Shown: positions 21,032-30,661 of the stretch, piece after piece
How positions within the stretch are numbered: position 1 is the first letter of the stretch
Layout: each line of letters starts with the position of its first letter
Assembly (NCBI GenBank): GCA_963717515.1
Contig: OY970338.1
Location: forward strand, 1,236,861-1,300,860
Direction of reading: 5' to 3'
Length of the DNA: 64,000 nt
Origin: an uncultured Candidatus Woesearchaeota archaeon
Lineage (GTDB): Archaea > Nanobdellota > Nanobdellia > Woesearchaeales > DSVV01
Notes under the pieces: generated by a model
What the model saw: only the letters and a program-made list of their open reading frames with translations
Databases searched by the model: none
Told to the model about the DNA's origin: nothing
Position numbers and translations under genes: made by a program

Positions 21032-23341
21032 CTATATCTTCTCCGCAACCCGCTCTTTTCCCACAAAGAACAGCAAGTACGCGAACATCTCGATCTCATC
21101 CATCTTATTGATCCAGAATCCATCTTCATCCTCAGACAGGACTCCGAGCGCCTTGAGCGCCATAACTGCATGACTGAAATCCCTGCCAGGATTTCTGCCG
21201 AACCGAGACAAATAATCCACTTTATATAATCTGAACCCATGGACGAGATTGTTGACTATGTATTTAACTTTTTCGAAGTCCTTTGAATAGCTTGTAGCAT
21301 AATTAACCATTGCAGCTTCATTTGTCGGGAATTTTTTCAGGAAAATATGCTTATTGGAACCTTTGTTCATTATCTTGTAATCCAGGGAATAGGGTATAAT
21401 TGGGTTGGCATAGTAACCCAGCCCGAATACAGCATGCTGGTCGGAGCTGTGATGAAAATATTTGTACCGGCAAGGAGGCCTATAATTCTTGTTGAAGAAC
21501 TGTGTCGGATGGATGAATCCTAGCGTTTCATGGGCTTGCGCCCTGAAGCCTGCTTCATCAGCAATCCTGAATATGTCCCTTGAGACTGATTCATGGAGCT
21601 TGAAATAGAATTCATTGAACTTTTCAAGCGATTTGTAATTCTTGGTTATGTATTCCATATCAGTCATGATGGGATAGATGAATATTGAGTCAGGCCCGAA
21701 AGCTGCCAATTTCCTGAATGAACGGATGAATGCATCTTTATTATCACCCTTTAAGCCCAGAACAAGATCTGCATTCTTGGTCTGGATGCCTGCAACTCCC
21801 ATATCGTGCAAGGCATTCTTGACTGAGTCTATGTCCTGCACTGACCTGTTGTTCAGCCTTAGGACTTCTTCTGAGAGCGACTGAACGCCGATTGAAACTT
21901 TGTTGAATCCGATCTCTTTTGCTGTGCTGAGCTTTTCCAACGATGAAGTGCCGGGGTTGAATTCAATCACTTTCTGTGAGCTCTTATGGAATGCGAACCT
22001 GGAGAACAATCTGCCGAACAACACCTTCATCTGCAGGACAGAGAGAAGCGAGGGTGTCCCTCCCCCTGCATAGAACGACCTGAATTCCACGCCTGAAAAT
22101 ACTTCCGAGTACTCGTCTATTTTCCTCATCAGGTACTTAACATATCTATCCATGCTCCTGCTGTCATAGCCTGTGGAGGGGTAAATACAATATGAGCACA
22201 TGCTTGTGCAGAAGGGTATGCTCAGATAGAAATCATACTGGATCTTGCCGTCATTGTTTTCCTGTATGAACTTTTTCCATGCATCCCTGACTTGCCCTTC
22301 GCTCAGCTCCCCTATGTCCTCTCTCAGGAACATATCATGGATTGTTTCGAAGCTGTTCCTGAAATCCACCTTTTCCTGGACATTTTTGTAAAATTCAAGC
22401 TCAGCCTGATACTGTTCCCTGTTTCTGTTCTCACCATATTTTGTTGATTTCGATACCGGCTTGAGCTCATCGAACCCGTACAGCTTCACGTATCCTTCAA
22501 ACAGCCCGCCGCAGACAGGGTCATATATGCAGTCCTTGCATGCTTCTCCCTTTATCTTGCCGTCCTCGACGTGCCTTACCCTGCTCCCGCTCTCGCGCTC
22601 AAGCTCCCATCGGCTGTCCTTGAGCAAAAGCTCACCGCAGCAGTCTTCATAACCTCTCAAAAAACACGGTGGGATAGAGCAGCCTGTGAATGAGAAGCCC
22701 ATGCCATTCTTCCTACAGTAGTCAAGTGCATTCCTGAGATAAGGGACTGCTTCTGATATCTTAGGGACTATCCATCTGTTCTTCCAGGCATTGCCCGCAG
22801 GCATGACAAATGAGAATGTGATATGCAGCTTTCCGAACTTGTTGTAGATGAACTTCACAAACTCAAGGATTTCCTTGTAGTTCTCCTTGTTTATCACAAA
22901 GCTTATGTCAGTCCGGATGCCCGTATCGACGAAACTGCTTATGGCTCTTGTGCTCTTATCAAACCCACCAGGCACCCTGGTCAGCCTGTCTGATACCTCT
23001 TTTTTATGGGAATGAAGAGATACAAGGACATTATCGATACCTGATTCTTTTACTTTTTCTGCAAAACCAGGGATGGATGCCACAAGCCCGTTTGTGCAGA
23101 GAGTTATCTTCGACGGTTTTCTTTGCCTGACCAACCTGGCAATCCGGAAAAGGTTTCTGCTGATGGTCGGTTCTCCGCCATCAATCACTACTTCTGTCCC
23201 TTTTTCAATAGAGCTGATGGTCTTTATCAGCATGCCAATAGAAGGGTCTGTCCTGTTGACATCCTCTCTGTCATAGGAACAGAACAGGCAGTTCTGGTTG
23301 CAGAGTTCAGTCAGGAACAATTGCTTTATTGATCTTTTCAA
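21032..23341 (-). CDS. Tandem double radical SAM protein: short 'CNQNCLFC' rSAM with C-terminal Cys module, fused to a HemN/HemZ-like rSAM
   Basis: Domain 1 has ELCNQNCLFCS, DGGEPT, IPPCFLRGYEDCC and CKDCIYDPVCGG. Domain 2 has IPFCTSMCSYCIYP and FYAGGGTPSLL, typical of oxygen-independent coproporphyrinogen-oxidase-like enzymes. Confidence 0.85.
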   Translation of the reverse strand: MKRSIKQLFLTELCNQNCLFCSYDREDVNRTDPSIGMLIKTISSIEKGTEVVIDGGEPTISRNLFRIARLVRQRKPSKITLCTNGLVASIPGFAEKVKESGIDNVLVSLHSHKKEVSDRLTRVPGGFDKSTRAISSFVDTGIRTDISFVINKENYKEILEFVKFIYNKFGKLHITFSFVMPAGNAWKNRWIVPKISEAVPYLRNALDYCRKNGMGFSFTGCSIPPCFLRGYEDCCGELLLKDSRWELERESGSRVRHVEDGKIKGEACKDCIYDPVCGGLFEGYVKLYGFDELKPVSKSTKYGENRNREQYQAELEFYKNVQEKVDFRNSFETIHDMFLREDIGELSEGQVRDAWKKFIQENNDGKIQYDFYLSIPFCTSMCSYCIYPSTGYDSRSMDRYVKYLMRKIDEYSEVFSGVEFRSFYAGGGTPSLLSVLQMKVLFGRLFSRFAFHKSSQKVIEFNPGTSSLEKLSTAKEIGFNKVSIGVQSLSEEVLRLNNRSVQDIDSVKNALHDMGVAGIQTKNADLVLGLKGDNKDAFIRSFRKLAAFGPDSIFIYPIMTDMEYITKNYKSLEKFNEFYFKLHESVSRDIFRIADEAGFRAQAHETLGFIHPTQFFNKNYRPPCRYKYFHHSSDQHAVFGLGYYANPIIPYSLDYKIMNKGSNKHIFLKKFPTNEAAMVNYATSYSKDFEKVKYIVNNLVHGFRLYKVDYLSRFGRNPGRDFSHAVMALKALGVLSEDEDGFWINKMDEIEMFAYLLFFVGKERVAEKI

Positions 23342-25150
23342 TTACATCACCGAGCTTGTCGAATACAGGATATATCTCTTTATGGCTGAACACTTCTGCA
23401 TAATTTTCCGGCACCCCGAAACATATCTTCTTGAGCGTGCAGACCGAACACGGCTCATAGAAATTGTTCTGGCGCACCCCGTCATGGCTCATGTTGTCGT
23501 CGAAATGGAGATATGAACTTTTTGTGTTCCTTACTATCTCCATGGATGGCGCGGAATATTCCTCGTATCCCCTGAGATAGCAGAGCGGCATCCTGTCGAC
23601 GACAGCCTTCAGCCTGTTGTTTTTAATGTATTCCAGTGCCCTGTAGACCCCTAGCTCTGAATCGCTCATCTTCACGAGTGGCTCCATGTTCTTTTTCGCC
23701 TGGTTCACAGGGTCTATGAAAATGAAGTTGAACATGCCCATGTCAGGATATCTCTTGTGCAGGAACCTTACATGCTCAAGAAGGTGCTTATGGTTGTATG
23801 AACATATGACTATGCCGAAACTGAGCTTCTCTCTTTTCCATGAATGTATGCTGTCCATCGCCTTCAATGCAAGGCCGTAATCCTTTGCAGAGCCTGTTAT
23901 GGTCTCATAGAGCTTCCTGTCTGATGCATGGAACGAGACGAGAAAGTCGATATCAAAGGCGTCAATGAGGCGCTTGAAAAAGCTCCTGCTCGACAGCAGG
24001 GTGCCGTTTGTCTGTAGGATAATCTTATGGATGCCTTTTTGTTTGCAGTAATTCAGAAATTTCGGCAGGTCTTTGTTGAGAGTAGGCTCTCCGCCTGTCA
24101 GGGTCAGATTCGTAGCACCTCTCATGATTGCGTAATCAAGCTTTTTTTTAGCTCGGAAAAAGGCATTGTCGTATTGTCGCAAGTAACAGAGCAAAATGCA
24201 CATTTCTGATTGCACCTGTTGTCTATCTGGAGGATGATATGGTCCTGCTTCTTGAGCCTGGGCACAAGCTCCTTGTCGCCGTGAATATTGATATAGTTCT
24301 GGTTCAGCCCGGGGCACCTGGGCTCAAGCTCGCATTCAGAGCACACGTCCGGCTTTGAATAATAGTTGGCCCTCCTGTTTATGCTCCCTTCCTCGAGCAG
24401 ACCTGTGAATGACGGCTCGTCGAATGCCTCTCTCCTGACCTCGCTGCAGTATTCCTCGAAGCCAGGCAGGAAACAGAGCGGGACAAACTCGATCCTGAAT
24501 CCCATGCCCCTGTCCAGGATGTACTGGAATGCCTCGAGCATATGGGGCTTTGCATCAGTGAGCCTTGGCACTATCCACTTGTTCTTCATGGCGTTATTCG
24601 TGGGGTCGACAAAATTATAGCTGAAATGCCTGATATGCGGAAAATTCTTTTCTGAAAATATCACCATGTCCTGAAGATCCCTGTAGTTCAGCGCATTGAT
24701 GACAGTCGTGAAATACGCATGGATCCTGTATTTCTCCACATTCTTCACACCTCTGCAGAACTGGTCAAAATCTCCGTCCCCCCGGGAAAGCTTTGGAAAT
24801 ATATCTTTTTTATTGGTATGATAGGAGATGTCGAACTTGTCAAGCCCTGACTTGATATATGCCTTAAGCAGTTTTTCATCATGGAGCCTGGAGGCATTTG
24901 TCTGCACAGAGACCTCTTCAAATCCCTGGGCCTTTGCATACCTGATGAGTTCTGGCAGGTCATCCCTGAGAGTGGGCTCTCCGCCTGTGAACATCACTTC
25001 TGTCACATCCTCTTTTTTGAGGTCGTCGATTGTCTTTTTTGCCTCTTCAAATGACAGCTCTGCATCCGAGTTCGGTGCTGAGCAGAACACGCAGTCCTGG
25101 TTGCACTTCCTGCTGACCTGCACAGTCCCAAGCACATGCCTTTTTTTCAT
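23307..25150 (-). CDS. Tandem double radical SAM protein interrupted by a -1 frameshift at an A8 run (track ORFs 24122..25150 and 23307..24317)
   Basis: Domain 1 has RKCNQDCVFCS, FTGGEPTL, VPLCFLPGFEEYC and CSECELEPRCPG. Domain 2 starts in the same frame (DNRCNQKCAFCS...MPFSELKK) and continues only in the -1 frame (KLDYAIMRGATNLTLTGGEPTL...MPLCYLRGYEEY...CSVCTLKKICFG). The Cys-motif to GGEPT spacing across the shift is 30 aa, against 32 aa in domain 1. Confidence 0.75.
24142..24149 (-). other. A8 homopolymer (T8 on the plus strand) at the frameshift point; A-AAA-AAA-type slippery run
   Basis: The minus strand reads gag cta aaa aaa agc ttg. Shifting -1 after the lysine codons gives aag ctt gat tac, which restores the second rSAM domain. 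Confidence 0.8.
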
Positions 25151-25659
25151 TTTATAACCTTGATCAGCTCCAGGAACTTATCCTGGGAAAATCGTTTCTC
25201 TCTGCTGTCCCGCCATCCTGTCACCAGCTTCTCAAGATTGAAGATCCCTTTCTCGAAAAGCTCAAACTCCCCGACAGCCCTCAGTGAGAATAATAGCTCT
25301 ACCCAAGGGGTTATGTCATCCTTTTCATACGAGAGGCTTTCGACAAAAAACCCCGCACTGAGTATGAAATCGTCGAAGATGTAATACATGTTCCCTATCA
25401 ATGAATAGAACAGGCCGATGGTCCTGTCAAGACCCGAATCTCCTGTCCTCTTCCTCTCGGTCAGGAGCATCCTGAGTATCTCCCGCGCCTCACCGATGGC
25501 CTTTTCAAGCTCATCGTTTTTCTGGAACCTGAGGCAGAGGTTGTAAGAGAATATCTCATCATGAGGCTCTCCAAGGCCATACGGGATGGGCCTTCTGTCT
25601 ATCGGAAACCCCAAAGTCCTTTCGAGTTCAGCAATCCTATCCGATATCATGTAGTCCAT
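25147..25659 (-). CDS. Hypothetical protein, predicted helical, embedded in the rSAM operon
   Basis: 170-aa ORF with 4-nt overlap to the downstream rSAM gene and a 1-nt gap to the upstream gene. No motif recognised. Confidence 0.5.
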   Translation of the reverse strand: MDYMISDRIAELERTLGFPIDRRPIPYGLGEPHDEIFSYNLCLRFQKNDELEKAIGEAREILRMLLTERKRTGDSGLDRTIGLFYSLIGNMYYIFDDFILSAGFFVESLSYEKDDITPWVELLFSLRAVGEFELFEKGIFNLEKLVTGWRDSREKRFSQDKFLELIKVIK

Positions 25660-25660
25660 C

Positions 25661-26626
25661 TTAATCGAAATCGAGCATGAACCAGCCTTCTTTTCTATCG
25701 ACCGTTTTTATGGTCCTGTTCCCCTTGCAGATCTTGAGCTTGCCGTCTTTTTCCAGTATCCTGTCGCCTTTCCTGACTAAGTCATAGAAACCGACAGTGT
25801 CTTCCGGCCTGGCAGGGTTGTCGATGTAGACGCTGTCCCTGTATCTTATCTCATCGCCTTTCATGTTCCCGTCGAACATCATGAAATTCCTCTCCCCGAA
25901 CACAAGAAGAGGCCTTTTTAGGAGCTCCCGGGTCTTTTTCACGAATCCCGGCTCGGCATCCATAATCCTGTTTTCGACATCAGCCGCATAGGCGATCGTA
26001 TTCTCGCACCTGTATGAACACGGTATGTGATGTATGTAGAAGAATGTCTTGTCCATCAGGAAATTGTTGCAGAGATATGAGCCTTTTGCCCCTTTTCCGT
26101 CATATTCTGTATTCTTGTACGTCTCATGCGGGTGGCTGTAGAGTCTCCAGTTGTTGTATCTCCTGAAGAAATCCACGCAGCAGTCCGGGAACCCGAGAAG
26201 CCTGCCGAACCTCAGATGGTCGACAAAGGGCTTGTTTATGCTCCGGTTGCCTATGACGACGGAATACCAGCCGAATTTTTTTGCCTTCAGCGCATCTTCC
26301 CTGGAATCTGATACGAACACATGGACCTCTCCTTCTTTCATCTTTTCATGGAACCGCTCCCCTACCTGGAAAGTGGTCGTGATATTCTCAGCACCGACAA
26401 TGCCTGCCTTGCCGGTCTTCGGTGTCCTGAATACAACATCTGTCTCGATAAAGAGCCCATAATCTTTGCAGATATTCCTGAACTCGTCAAAGACATTCAC
26501 GTCGATCCAGTCATCATAGCTTCTTTTCACTCCGAGCGCAGCAGCCACAAACATAGGGTACTGGTCTGAGTTCTTCAGCCTGACGTACTCTTTTGCGAAT
26601 TTTTTCGGTACATACTGCCCAATCAT
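25661..26626 (-). CDS. Conserved-looking hypothetical protein with GFPDCC and HHIPCSYRC motifs
   Basis: 321-aa ORF overlapping the upstream rSAM gene by 4 nt. The Cys pattern LLGFPDCCVDFF ... YIHHIPCSYRCENT recalls an archaeal DUF family, but I cannot name it with certainty. Confidence 0.55.
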   Translation of the reverse strand: MIGQYVPKKFAKEYVRLKNSDQYPMFVAAALGVKRSYDDWIDVNVFDEFRNICKDYGLFIETDVVFRTPKTGKAGIVGAENITTTFQVGERFHEKMKEGEVHVFVSDSREDALKAKKFGWYSVVIGNRSINKPFVDHLRFGRLLGFPDCCVDFFRRYNNWRLYSHPHETYKNTEYDGKGAKGSYLCNNFLMDKTFFYIHHIPCSYRCENTIAYAADVENRIMDAEPGFVKKTRELLKRPLLVFGERNFMMFDGNMKGDEIRYRDSVYIDNPARPEDTVGFYDLVRKGDRILEKDGKLKICKGNRTIKTVDRKEGWFMLDFD

Positions 26627-27516
26627 CTTTTCACAGCGACAAACTCGTCGCTTCCCCTCCTCTCCGGATACTCTTTCCAGGGCCCCTCGCAGACATTGTC
26701 ATATTTGCACTCTTTGCACTGGGGGAATTTCATCTTTCCCTCTGTCCTGCGGGTATTCTCAAAAGACGGGTCATAGGAGTTCACATCCCTTATCTCTGTC
26801 TCAGGCATGTAGAATTCAGAGCAGTATCTCTCATAGCCTTCCATCATGCAGAAAGGCATTGCCTCTGCCATCACCTTGACACCCGCATCTATGCCTATCT
26901 GCAGACCCTTTTTTATGTAGGGTGATGCAAGGCTCACCCATGGCATCATCTGGTCATAATTATCCATAGCATTGCCCACAGCATGCATGAAGGCGAACTG
27001 GTACTGGTCGACGCCGAGGTCCACGAGGAGCTTTGCGATTTCAGGGAGGTACCTGTAATTCGGCTTCACGACGACAGTGTTGGTTATTATGTACTGGTCC
27101 AGCTCCCTCAGGTTCCTTATCGCCCTGGTTGTCTGCAGGAATGAGCCTTGCCCGCGGGTCAGGTAATCATGAAGCTCTGGGATGTGGCCATGGAGCGCCG
27201 GGCCGAATTCATTGACGCCTGCCTTTATCAGTTCCCTGCAGTAGTCCCTGTACTGGAGCATGCGGACATTGCTCTGGAGCTGGATTCTATCGAATCCCAG
27301 GCATTTTGCATGCCTCACAAGGTCGAGGAGGTCGTCTCTTATGGTTACTTCCCCACCTGTGAATACCACTCCTGTGCAGCCGGTCTTTTTTGCATCTTCA
27401 AGATCTTTCTTTATGTCTCCTGTCTTCCTGTTGCCGAACCTCTTCTTGTGCGCCTGGACGCAGAACAGACAGTTGTTGTTGCATAGAAACCCAGTCTTAA
27501 TATCGACCCTTTTCAT
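26623..27516 (-). CDS. Radical SAM enzyme, short family with C-terminal Cys module (candidate HxsC-like partner)
   Basis: Contains GFLCNNNCLFCVQ, FTGGEVT, MPFCMMEGYERYC and CKECKYDNVCEGPW. It is the first gene of the minus-strand operon, divergent from the Hxs-like genes. Confidence 0.85.
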   Translation of the reverse strand: MKRVDIKTGFLCNNNCLFCVQAHKKRFGNRKTGDIKKDLEDAKKTGCTGVVFTGGEVTIRDDLLDLVRHAKCLGFDRIQLQSNVRMLQYRDYCRELIKAGVNEFGPALHGHIPELHDYLTRGQGSFLQTTRAIRNLRELDQYIITNTVVVKPNYRYLPEIAKLLVDLGVDQYQFAFMHAVGNAMDNYDQMMPWVSLASPYIKKGLQIGIDAGVKVMAEAMPFCMMEGYERYCSEFYMPETEIRDVNSYDPSFENTRRTEGKMKFPQCKECKYDNVCEGPWKEYPERRGSDEFVAVKR

Positions 27517-27667
27517 TGACTGGTGAATATCAGCATATCTTATAAAACTTTGGGATTAGATGTTTGTATTTCAAAAAGATTTAAATATTTCCCGTGATTT
27601 TACCATTTTCATGCCAGACGTGTCTATGCAGGGAAACCTGGAGATAAACAAGAAAGAGGGGTTTGTG
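27517..27667. promoter_or_regulatory. Divergent promoter region between the rSAM operon and the Hxs-like genes
   Basis: TTTAAATA at 27590-27597 faces the plus strand. TTTTATAAGATA on the minus strand (about 27537-27548) lies roughly 20-32 nt upstream of the minus-strand ATG at 27516. A GAGGGG SD-like motif precedes the ATG at 27668. Confidence 0.3.
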
Positions 27668-28129
27668 ATGGTCTCTGTGAATCCGAAGATATATCCGCTT
27701 GACGTCGTCCTCTCATCCTCATACATGTTCACTGACAAGAACTATGTCCTTGTTGACGGAGACCCGGAGGAGGAGCTGATTGTCGAGCTCAGGCCGAAAG
27801 ACAAAAATGCCGACATAGAGAAGCTCGGCAGGGACTTCAACAACGAGCTCATCAATTATGCTAATTATGCAGTACGGGCGATACAGAACCAGGGGATGCG
27901 GGAAGCCATAATCCACAGGGTGCTCATGACAAATTCAGCAGGCAGACCGGATTACAGGCAGCCTGTTGAAGAATATCCTGCTGCTGATGAAGAGCTCCTT
28001 GAAGTCGATGCAAAGCCTTGGATAAAATCAGACGAGAAATCAGAGGCCGACTCGCCATGGTTTGACGACCCTGAGGGGATCGCTGTTCCCTGGGAGGAGA
28101 AATATGGGGATAAAGGTAAGAAAAAATAA
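27668..28129 (+). CDS. HxsD-like small protein with acidic C-terminal tail (start uncertain; track ORF begins at 27560)
   Basis: MVSVNPKIYPLDVVLSSSYMFTDKNYVLVDG...GRDFNNELINYANYAVRA resembles the layout and the LLNDYxLRE-type motif I recall for HxsD. Alternative ATGs lie at 27560, 27611 and 27626. Confidence 0.45.
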   Translation: MVSVNPKIYPLDVVLSSSYMFTDKNYVLVDGDPEEELIVELRPKDKNADIEKLGRDFNNELINYANYAVRAIQNQGMREAIIHRVLMTNSAGRPDYRQPVEEYPAADEELLEVDAKPWIKSDEKSEADSPWFDDPEGIAVPWEEKYGDKGKKK

Positions 28130-28319
28130 TGTTCTTGTAAGGCTCAACGAGGAAATCTACTGCAGGGAATGCATTGAGCAGGCTATCAAGGATTTCAAGG
28201 ACGTATGCACAGTGACTGAGAATGAAGACGGCCTCCTGCTCAAGCCAAAGGCGAAGATCGAGCCTGTGAGGCTGGGTTATGAATTTTCCAATTATGTTCT
28301 AGGGCTCATGAAGAATTAG
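28104..28319 (+). CDS. Second HxsD-like small protein
   Basis: 71 aa from the ATG at 28104, preceded by GGAGGAG. It reads VLVRLNEEIYCRECIEQAIKDFKDVC...GYEFSNYVLGLMKN, with the same architecture as the upstream gene. Confidence 0.45.
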   Translation: MGIKVRKNNVLVRLNEEIYCRECIEQAIKDFKDVCTVTENEDGLLLKPKAKIEPVRLGYEFSNYVLGLMKN

Positions 28320-28324
28320 TGAAG

Positions 28325-29704
28325 ATGGCGATAAGTTATTTCGGGGACAAGGAGCAGTATGTACTGAACCATTACAGGTCGAGAGAGATCAAGGCAGGCC
28401 ATCTGGTGACCAATGACTACGGCTCTTGGGCGTTGCTTTCTCCTGATGAATACGCACAGCTCAGGACAGGGGACATCCAGGAGCCTCTTCTGACTCTTCT
28501 GAAGGATAAGGGGATTGTACTTGACAGGGGAAATTTTGCAAATGTCATCGATGATTACAGGAGGAAATGCGACTATCTCTTCATCGGCACTTCGCTCCAT
28601 ATTGTTGTCCCGACCCTGAGATGCAACTTGAAGTGCATTTACTGCCATGCAAGGGCCAAGAGCAGCAGGGCCAAGGGCTATGACATGGATGAAAAAACTG
28701 CGAAAAAAACCATTGATTTCATCTTCCAGAGCCCGACAGGATACATCACCATAGAATTCCAGGGGGGCGAGCCCCTGCTCAGGTTTGACCTCATCAAATA
28801 CATTATTGAATATGCAAAAGAGAAGAACAAGTCCCATAAGAAGGAGCTCCATTGGAGTGTGGTCACTAACCTTACCCATATGACTGATGAGATGTTTGAA
28901 TATTTCAAGAAGAACGGTGTCGGCATATGCACATCCCTTGACGGCCCTAAGGTTGTGCATGATGCAAACAGGCAGATGCATAGCAAGACCAGGAAATGGA
29001 TAAAGAAGATTGTTGATTCTTATACTATCAATGCAATGCTCCTTGCGACAAGGAACACACTGCCATACCCAAAGGAGATAGTTGATGAGTACATCAGCCT
29101 GGGCCTTCCGAGGATATGGATCAAGCCTGTGAACAACCTCGGCGATGCTGAGGGGAACTGGAAGAAGATCGGCATGACTGCAGCAGAATACCTTGATTTC
29201 TGGACAGAGGCGATGGATTATATCGTTACCAAGAACATCGAAGGGGTCCGGATTGAGGAAAATTATACCAAGATAATCCTGAGGAAGATACTGACAAAGG
29301 AATGCGTGAATTTCACAGACCTTGAAAGCCCATGCGGGGCTGCAATCGGCCAGCTCGCGTACAGCTACAACGGAAACATCCATACGTGCGATGAGGCAAG
29401 GCTGTTTGAGATGTTCAAGCTCGGGACAGTGGATGACAGATACAGCGATATAGTCACATCTCCAGGCGCATGTGCAATCACGAGGGCATCGATCAATGAC
29501 AATCCTGTGTGCGAGATGTGCGCCTACAAGCCTATATGCGGACTCTGCCCTGTGTGCAGTTATGCAGAGACAGGAAATATCATATCGAAGCTGCCGAACA
29601 GGCGCTGTGAGATACTTATCGGCATGTTCGACTACATATTTGAAAAGCTTGCTTCTGAAGAAAAATACAGGAAAGTTTTCTTCAGCTGGATAGGGAAAGA
29701 ATAA
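28325..29704 (+). CDS. Radical SAM/SPASM maturase (HxsB-like; anaerobic sulfatase maturase superfamily)
   Basis: About 90-aa N-terminal extension, then RCNLKCIYCHA and FQGGEPLL. The SPASM region is CGAAIGQLAYSYNGNIHTCDE ... CEMCAYKPICGLCPVCSY. The track ORF starts at GTG 28319, and the ATG is at 28325. Confidence 0.85.
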   Translation: MAISYFGDKEQYVLNHYRSREIKAGHLVTNDYGSWALLSPDEYAQLRTGDIQEPLLTLLKDKGIVLDRGNFANVIDDYRRKCDYLFIGTSLHIVVPTLRCNLKCIYCHARAKSSRAKGYDMDEKTAKKTIDFIFQSPTGYITIEFQGGEPLLRFDLIKYIIEYAKEKNKSHKKELHWSVVTNLTHMTDEMFEYFKKNGVGICTSLDGPKVVHDANRQMHSKTRKWIKKIVDSYTINAMLLATRNTLPYPKEIVDEYISLGLPRIWIKPVNNLGDAEGNWKKIGMTAAEYLDFWTEAMDYIVTKNIEGVRIEENYTKIILRKILTKECVNFTDLESPCGAAIGQLAYSYNGNIHTCDEARLFEMFKLGTVDDRYSDIVTSPGACAITRASINDNPVCEMCAYKPICGLCPVCSYAETGNIISKLPNRRCEILIGMFDYIFEKLASEEKYRKVFFSWIGKE

Positions 29705-29761: not shown

Positions 29762-30661
29762 ATGCTGCCGATATTAAAAAAAAAGATAACAGGTTTCATA
29801 CTTAGTGAAGAGGGCAGGATGCCCAAGCAGTCTCTTCTTGCCATGGGCTCATTCCTTTCTGCAGCAGTCATCGGAGGTATTCTTGCGACAAGGGACAATG
29901 CTGCAAGCCATGTGAACAGCCTTGACATCAGGTATGGCACTTCCGAGGGATTAGGGGCTGAGGAGTCCAGGGGATATCATGACCATCATGCAAGCCACAG
30001 TTCACACGGTTCACATAGCAGTCATGGCTCGCATAGTTCACACGGTTCACACAGTTCCCATGGCAGCCATGGGAGTCATACAAGCCATAGCAGTCATGGT
30101 TCGCATAGTTCACACGGTTCACACAGTTCCCATGGCAGCCATGGGAGTCATACAAGCCATAGCAGTCATGGTTCGCATAGTTCACACGGTTCACACAGTT
30201 CCCATGGCAGCCATGGGAGTCATACAAGCCATAGCAGCCATGGTTCGCATAGCTCCCACTCAAGCCATGGTTCCCACAGCAGCCATAGTTCTCACAGCTC
30301 CCACTCAAGCCATGGTTCCCACAGCAGCCATAGTTCTCACAGCTCCCACTCAAGCCATGGTTCCCACAGCAGCCATAGTTCGCATAGCTCCCACTCAAGC
30401 CATGGTTCCCACAGCAGCCATGGTTCTCACAGTTCTCATGGAAGCCACAGCAGTCATGGTTCTCATAGTAGTCACGGGAGTCATACAAGCCATGGTTCTC
30501 ATAGTTCTCATGGCAGTCACTCAAGCCATGGAAGTCATAGCTCGCATGGGAGTCATGCGAGCGGTGGTGGTGGTGGTAGCGACGGCAGTTGTGGTACATC
30601 AGATGGCGATGCTGGCGGTGGCGGTGGCGATGGCGGTGCTAGTTGTGGTTGTGGATATTAG
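29762..30661 (+). CDS. His-Xaa-Ser repeat protein (HxsA-like): N-terminal hydrophobic segment, 64 HxS triplets, Gly/Asp/Cys tail
   Basis: - aa 1-75 contain SLLAMGSFLSAAVIGGILA.
- aa 76-267 are 64 consecutive H-[SGTA]-S triplets (29987-30562).
- The tail is GGGGGSDGSCGTSDGDAGGGGGDGGASCGCGY. Confidence 0.8.
   Translation: MLPILKKKITGFILSEEGRMPKQSLLAMGSFLSAAVIGGILATRDNAASHVNSLDIRYGTSEGLGAEESRGYHDHHASHSSHGSHSSHGSHSSHGSHSSHGSHGSHTSHSSHGSHSSHGSHSSHGSHGSHTSHSSHGSHSSHGSHSSHGSHGSHTSHSSHGSHSSHSSHGSHSSHSSHSSHSSHGSHSSHSSHSSHSSHGSHSSHSSHSSHSSHGSHSSHGSHSSHGSHSSHGSHSSHGSHTSHGSHSSHGSHSSHGSHSSHGSHASGGGGGSDGSCGTSDGDAGGGGGDGGASCGCGY
30041..30256 (+). repeat. 72-bp tandem repeat x3 inside the HxS gene
   Basis: The units 30041-30112 and 30113-30184 are identical. 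The third unit (30185-30256) differs only near its end. Each unit encodes 24 aa. Confidence 0.9.
30251..30430 (+). repeat. 45-bp tandem repeat x4 inside the HxS gene
   Basis: agctcccactcaagccatggttcccacagcagccatagttctcac occurs at 30251-30295 and again, identical, at 30296-30340. The units at 30341-30385 and 30386-30430 carry 1-3 substitutions. Each unit encodes 15 aa. Confidence 0.9.

Follow-up and report, generated by a model that had tools for sequence, protein, structure and literature searches.

The gene that occupies positions 23307 to 25150 of the window (the whole 64,000-nucleotide stretch of contig OY970338.1 analysed here, from an uncultured Candidatus Woesearchaeota archaeon) encodes two radical-SAM domains, and its reading frame changes within the second of them at a run of eight adenines. 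The question is whether this change of frame is a decoding signal, a genuine mutation, or an error in the assembled sequence. The original prediction left programmed slippage, phase variation or other recent mutation, and homopolymer miscalling side by side; the miscall and recent-mutation options both survive the analysis described below, and the programmed option is disfavored. The features concerned are as follows.

23307..25150, minus strand: the whole radical-SAM gene, a tandem fusion of two HxsC-like radical-SAM domains, with 614 codons if the run is A9
24122..25150, minus strand: the frame-0 open reading frame as deposited, 342 aa, annotated as protein P0002 and ending SELKKSLITQS*
24191..24214, minus strand: the domain 2 CxxxCxxC cluster motif, CNQKCAFC, in frame 0 and 5′ of the break, as read from the sequence
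24142..24149, minus strand: the A8 run and frame-change point (T8 on the plus strand), with 0-frame codons CTA AAA AAA AGC
24122..24124, minus strand: the frame-0 stop codon TGA, six sense codons (SLITQS) past the A8 run
23307..24143, minus strand: the −1-frame continuation, 278 stop-free codons encoding the remainder of domain 2

Organization of the interrupted gene

The frame break is confirmed in the deposited sequence. The A8 run lies at 24142–24149 as predicted, appearing as T8 on the plus strand with the gene on the minus strand, and the coding potential switches there to the −1 frame. The gene starts at an ATG at position 25150 that overlaps the stop codon of a 170-aa gene 5′ of it (ATGA). 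Domain 1 is complete, with the radical-SAM features CNQDCVFC, GGEPTL and a C-terminal CxxCxxxxxC, and frame 0 then runs directly into domain 2, in agreement with the claim that the second domain begins in frame with the first; the frame-0 product includes approximately the first 36 residues of domain 2, which opens with DNRCNQKCAFCSVTCDNTTMPFSELKK and contains CNQKCAFC. Across the A8 run frame 0 reads ...DNRCNQKCAFCSVTCDNTTMPFSELKKSLITQS, followed by TGA. The −1 frame reads KLDYAIMRGATNLTLTGGEPTL... from the run and is open to position 23307, and its 278 codons carry the remaining domain 2 motifs, as had been proposed: GGEPTL (24095..24081), QTNG, SFHAS, IDPV, PLCY and CSVCTLKKIC. A full-length product would have the junction-spanning peptide LKKKLDYAIMRGATNLTLTGGE.

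That the two parts belong to one domain is apparent from the Pfam matches. The Radical_SAM family (PF04055, gathering threshold 29.5 bits) is matched twice in the fused protein (E = 6.3e-46), with domain 1 scoring 99.7 bits. Fused domain 2 is aligned to positions 5–166 of the model and scores 69 bits, whereas the downstream piece by itself covers positions 35–166 only and scores 48 bits, and this difference in coverage indicates that the break interrupts the core of domain 2. The increase in score, together with the alignment of orthologues to 99% of the fused protein, bears out the claim that homology bridges the shift.

Only two run lengths restore the frame, A9 (614 aa) and A6 (613 aa). The suggestion that an A7 run would produce an in-frame gene is incorrect, as A7 reads SELKKA*, and the spacing of 30 aa given between the domain 2 Cys motif and GGEPT needs revision: under the A9 reading it is 32 aa, identical to that in domain 1. 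The gene calls of the genome itself divide the locus into the 342-aa P0002 and a 272-aa product beginning at an internal ATG (P0122).

Comparison with orthologues

The nearest proteins are two of 629 aa (52% identity over 99% of the query) and one of 790 aa (47% identity), and the names of the homologues are those of DPANN archaea (Woesearchaeota, Nanoarchaeia). In these three orthologues and in 19 further double-domain homologues one frame spans the whole gene and the site lacks an A-run (22 of 22), and the A9 reading aligns without a gap over the junction to all 22. The junction codons in the orthologues are GTA AAG CAA AAG ATA, TTA AAA CAA AAA ATT, and ATA AAA CAA AAA ATA, corresponding to [V/L/I]-K-Q-K-I (summarized as AAA CAA AAR for loci L031, L032 and L033), and those of the window are CTA AAA AAA A(A)G CTT. 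At the protein level, the A9 junction SELKKKLDY is matched by NEVKQKIDF, DQLKQKIDF and KEIKQKILF. Given the K-Q-K of the orthologues at this site, a single C-to-A change (Gln to Lys) evidently created an A9 tract on this branch, and the deposited run is one A short of it.

No closer relative was found, the best match among 40 GTDB relatives being only 33–34% identical. An exact-pattern scan of metagenome and genome contig collections, allowing for A6 to A10, returned no second copy of the locus. Protein searches with the fused protein and with fused domain 2 gave 100% identity only to the genome's own 342- and 272-aa products, and neither search returned a junction-spanning fragment from another assembly. 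The contig carrying L031 has a row of genes broadly similar to that of the window, made up in order of a short radical-SAM gene, a double radical-SAM gene, a 417-aa radical-SAM-like gene, a second double radical-SAM gene, and a B12-radical-SAM gene. A stand-alone single-domain protein, P0123 (325 aa, from an ENA contig), has 49% identity over 98% of the fused domain 2 query, so that domain 2 also occurs elsewhere as an independent gene.

Test for slippage signals at the A8 run

The A8 run was originally described as a slippery sequence, and the heptamer A_AAA_AAA is indeed present in the appropriate phase. It is not rare, however; there are 256 in-phase copies in the approximately 1,100 long open reading frames of the genome, and the slippery phase is the commonest one for A7 runs. 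With so many copies, the motif alone is evidently not an efficient shifter in this organism, and its presence at the break is not evidence of shifting. The downstream stimulatory hairpin that was to be looked for is not predicted by folding: a 131-nt stretch spanning and following the site has a minimum free energy of −25.4 kcal/mol compared with a shuffle mean of −23.2 kcal/mol (z = −0.62), the A-run forms the loop of the only local hairpin, and about 17 nt lie between the run and the next helix downstream. No Shine-Dalgarno-like element (GGAGG or GGTGA) is present in the approximately 100 nt upstream of the run. A −1 frameshift site is expected to have a slippery heptamer, a stimulator (5–9 nt downstream, or a Shine-Dalgarno sequence upstream) and conservation, and the heptamer is the one component that we find; transcriptional slippage is expected at runs of at least 9 A or T, and this run is 8 nt.

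Several systems provide points of comparison. In archaea, −1 frameshifting at A-AAA-AAT has been proven for fucA1 of Sulfolobus solfataricus (PMC1616953), and A_AAA_AAR has been proposed as a conserved shift site in Mg-chelatase genes, including those of methanococci (PMC5009743). The site resembles these and the A_AAA_AAG of Escherichia coli dnaX in having an in-phase, A-rich X_XXY_YYZ sequence with the downstream part in the −1 frame; it differs from them in that the shift is not conserved, there is no flanking stimulator, the heptamer is abundant, and the shift occurs inside a catalytic domain. Poly-A transcriptional slippage generates two functional length variants of TssM (PMC4256274), as at the A11 tract of Citrobacter rodentium tssM1, and the runs at which efficient RNA polymerase slippage has been documented have a length of 9 or more (PMC5009743). 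With those cases (Thermus dnaX T9, tssM1 A11) the locus shares a break at an A tract that is mendable by one added A, but the tract is of 8 nt rather than the 9–11 nt documented (PMC5009743, PMC4256274).

ARAGORN reports 39 tRNA genes in the whole genome, among them a single tRNA-Lys with anticodon UUU that contains an intron; no tRNA-Lys(CUU) was detected by ARAGORN in the genome, and it is either truly absent or missed owing to introns. The fucA1 precedent and the single tRNA-Lys (UUU) make a slippage mechanism possible, and nothing in the sequence indicates selection for it.

State of the downstream half

The 278 codons beyond the break contain neither a stop codon nor an indel and retain the motifs of the family, so that the break is either artefactual or very recent. 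Of the columns with at least 90% conservation across the family, 23 of 24 are kept downstream of the break, as compared with 35 of 36 upstream.

The downstream half has nonetheless diverged faster. The three-point branch on this lineage is approximately 0.60 downstream and 0.40 upstream (about 1.5 times), and clade-invariant positions are retained at 65% downstream and 82% upstream (Fisher p = 0.002); the orthologues do not have such an upstream/downstream asymmetry in rate. These substitution patterns hint that domain 2 is less strongly constrained. As a cause of the excess divergence, neutral decay following the frameshift was considered and rejected, since stops and indels are absent and the columns invariant across the family are preserved. 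By a rough estimate, neutral decay amounting to the excess of about 0.2 substitutions per site would have brought about three stop codons and several indels, and the excess more likely dates from a time when domain 2 was still translated but under looser or different constraint.

Homopolymer runs across the genome and the ABCE1 gene

To place the A8 run in context, every mononucleotide run of at least 6 nt was screened for cases in which a long upstream frame ends just past the run and a second long frame, in a different phase, continues downstream. The proportion of runs yielding a candidate is flat with run length (six-mers, 66 of 1791; seven-mers, 23 of 673; runs of at least 8 nt, 10 of 266), which argues that most candidates are ordinary gene junctions. 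All 78 candidate junctions at 6- and 7-nt runs were read, and they all have the look of ordinary gene boundaries or spurious antisense open reading frames. Some 119 runs of at least 8 nt lie intact in open frames, and among all the runs screened only two break a gene: the A8 run described here and a G9 run in the gene for ABCE1. Among long A/T runs the A8 is the only such case out of approximately 120 in coding sequence. Intact open frames hold at least 23 A or T runs of at least 9 nt, so that an A9 tract inside the radical-SAM gene would be unremarkable.

The ABCE1 gene (C1:1536353-1538126, minus strand) lies outside the window, and its G9 run, at C1:1537193-1537201, is the genome's only G9 run and its single longest G/C run. 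It splits the protein into parts of 311 aa and 281 aa, and a G8 run would restore ARGGIN. The domains of the split protein (Fer4_RLI, Fer4, and two ABC_tran) are those of ABCE1 (RLI), which is present in a single copy in the genome. The gene is unbroken in 12 of 12 relatives, with a length of 585–603 aa in eleven and a contig-truncated frame of 527 aa in the other (G002); the closest ABCE1 (85% identity) has GCG CGG GGC GGC ATA where the sequence here is GCA AGG GGG GGG G ATA. ABCE1 is essential in archaea and eukaryotes, and a real knock-out is implausible. The disruption of an essential gene that is unbroken in relatives suggests that the assembly miscounts some long homopolymers, and the G9 break is probably an assembly homopolymer error. 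The implied rate of homopolymer error is low, at approximately 1%, and comparable to that at which real slip mutations might plausibly occur. The ABCE1 control therefore raises the probability that the A8 run is artefactual, and does not settle it.

Interpretation of the frame break

The break is most likely not a designed feature, and the case is an ordinary one. In the explanation that we favor, the locus would be a single gene, encoding an enzyme of 614 residues that carries two HxsC-like radical-SAM domains in tandem, and would form part of an accessory operon beside an archaeal His-Xaa-Ser (HxsA/B/D) system. A C-to-A change would have converted an ancestral Lys-Gln-Lys (AAA CAA AAG) to a nine-A tract in this lineage, and the deposited A8 would be a miscount of its length in the assembly consensus, with the gene intact and no special decoding required. 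We infer a consensus error over a real deletion with evenly balanced confidence. As in homopolymer errors in genome and metagenome-assembled consensus sequences, and in slip-strand pseudogenes, there is a one-base change in a run of at least 8 nt, the coding sequence is intact on both sides, and the break is absent from relatives, while an essential gene elsewhere in this assembly provides a second example; no feature found so far sets the A8 run apart from these. Several observations weigh against a miscount: the assembly is otherwise clean, with no convincing splits among runs of 6 or 7 nt; its error rate per site does not exceed that plausible for real slip mutations; the downstream half evolves faster on this lineage; and at ABCE1 the error is one G too many, whereas at A8 it would be one A too few. 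Some of the same observations fit a real and very recent loss of one base from the A9 tract by replication slippage, fixed or polymorphic in the population, which we consider possible if somewhat doubtful. The organism would then produce a 342-aa protein in which domain 1 works and domain 2 is reduced to a useless stub; domain 2 would be lost or switched by phase variation, and leaky polymerase or ribosome slippage might yield a trace of full-length protein that is not selected for. Long A tracts are mutational hot spots, domain 2 has been evolving faster, and homopolymer frame breaks are otherwise almost absent from the assembly. The cluster has many single-domain paralogues of about 300 aa, making a domain-1-only product plausible, and the next gene has its own Shine-Dalgarno-like GGTGAT, 4 nt ahead of its TTG start, so expression of the operon need not collapse. 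Conversely, with 278 codons free of stops and indels and the key motifs intact, any inactivation must be extremely young; the additional substitutions in domain 2 cannot be neutral decay following the frameshift; and the G9 run in ABCE1 illustrates that the same symptom can be an artefact in this assembly.

Under programmed or regulatory recoding the A8 run would be real. Slippage of tandem tRNA-Lys by −1 on A_AAA_AAA, or addition of an A by RNA polymerase, could set the ratio of one- to two-domain products, and the correct phase of the heptamer with its perfect re-pairing in the −1 frame, the one tRNA-Lys (UUU) detected, the intact downstream half, and the precedents in Sulfolobus fucA1, the Mg-chelatase genes and TssM are all compatible with this. 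It seems unlikely, though, that such regulation has been selected: the shift is found in none of the 3 nearest orthologues and 19 homologues, the predicted fold lacks a stimulator, the heptamer is commonplace, and the run is shorter than the 9 nt of documented RNA polymerase slippage. Moreover, the break falls between the Cys motif and the GGE motif and not at a domain boundary, and the short product would thus carry a pointless stub. Somewhat more improbable still is that the A8 and ABCE1 G9 runs are both real and are tolerated through RNA polymerase or ribosome slippage on long tracts. Were this the case, the implication would be that broken genes are rescued by slippage in a DPANN archaeon, which would extend to a reduced-genome archaeon the 'rescue by polymerase infidelity' of insect endosymbionts, and slippage would also set the ratio of one- to two-domain maturase in a defence-linked operon; rescue of frameshifted genes by transcriptional slippage in Buchnera and Blochmannia is among the work cited in PMC5009743. 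The annotation of separate 342- and 272-aa proteins raises the further idea of two genuine genes, a radical-SAM protein and a cluster-less radical-SAM-like protein translated from the internal ATG (AIM-RGATN), and this we regard as very improbable. Such a boundary would cut the radical-SAM core, parting CxxxCxxC from GGEPT; every homologue joins both parts in one frame; the stand-alone P0123 aligns to the domain 2 query with the Cys-motif stretch included; and there is no Shine-Dalgarno-like site in the sequence ahead of the internal ATG. The two-gene reading is effectively refuted by the alignment across the junction.

The operon and its His-Xaa-Ser neighbors

At present the consequence is mainly one of annotation: the 342-aa and 272-aa calls should probably be replaced by one 614-aa tandem HxsC-like enzyme. 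The merged gene matters for reconstruction of the neighboring archaeal His-Xaa-Ser system. The implausible break in ABCE1, in a genome assembled as a single contig, also counsels caution over the other split genes in this genome.

Considering the top two NCBIfam matches for each domain, HxsC (TIGR03977) leads for domain 1 and HxsC4 (NF038332) for domain 2. Against the TIGR03977 profile domain 1 scores 105.7 bits and domain 2 scores 80.2 bits, well below the cut-off of 267.9, and by these profile scores both domains are HxsC-like only, below the threshold for membership. Four neighboring genes are assigned by NCBIfam to the His-Xaa-Ser system.

26623-27516: HxsC4-like protein, 167 bits, below cut-off
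27560-28129: HxsD-like protein, 45 bits, just under the cut-off of 50
28319-29704: HxsB, 434 bits compared with a cut-off of 370
29762-30661: HxsA4-type His-x-Ser repeat protein, 96 bits compared with a cut-off of 55

The bacterial HXS system is a defence against phage entry (PMC13128918, Nat Commun 2026). The interrupted gene resembles the HxsC maturase of that antiphage system in its top NCBIfam families and in adjoining genes for HxsB, HxsA4-type and HxsD-like proteins; it differs in scoring far under the cut-off, in having two domains fused in tandem, and in its archaeal host.

The next gene (21032-23341, minus strand) has its TTG start 35 nt ahead of where the split gene ends, with GGTGAT 4 nt upstream, and its product has an HxsC-like domain fused to a HemN/STM4012-like radical-SAM domain (NF006067, 153 bits, below cut-off). 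The gene directly upstream of the double radical-SAM gene, which it overlaps at ATGA (25147-25659, minus strand), encodes a helical protein of 170 aa. This protein is present as an N-terminal fusion in the 790-aa double radical-SAM orthologue P0005 of a metagenome contig (L033:2748-5120; 43% identity, E = 2e-38), a fusion that ties the uncharacterized 170-aa protein functionally to the double radical-SAM enzyme.
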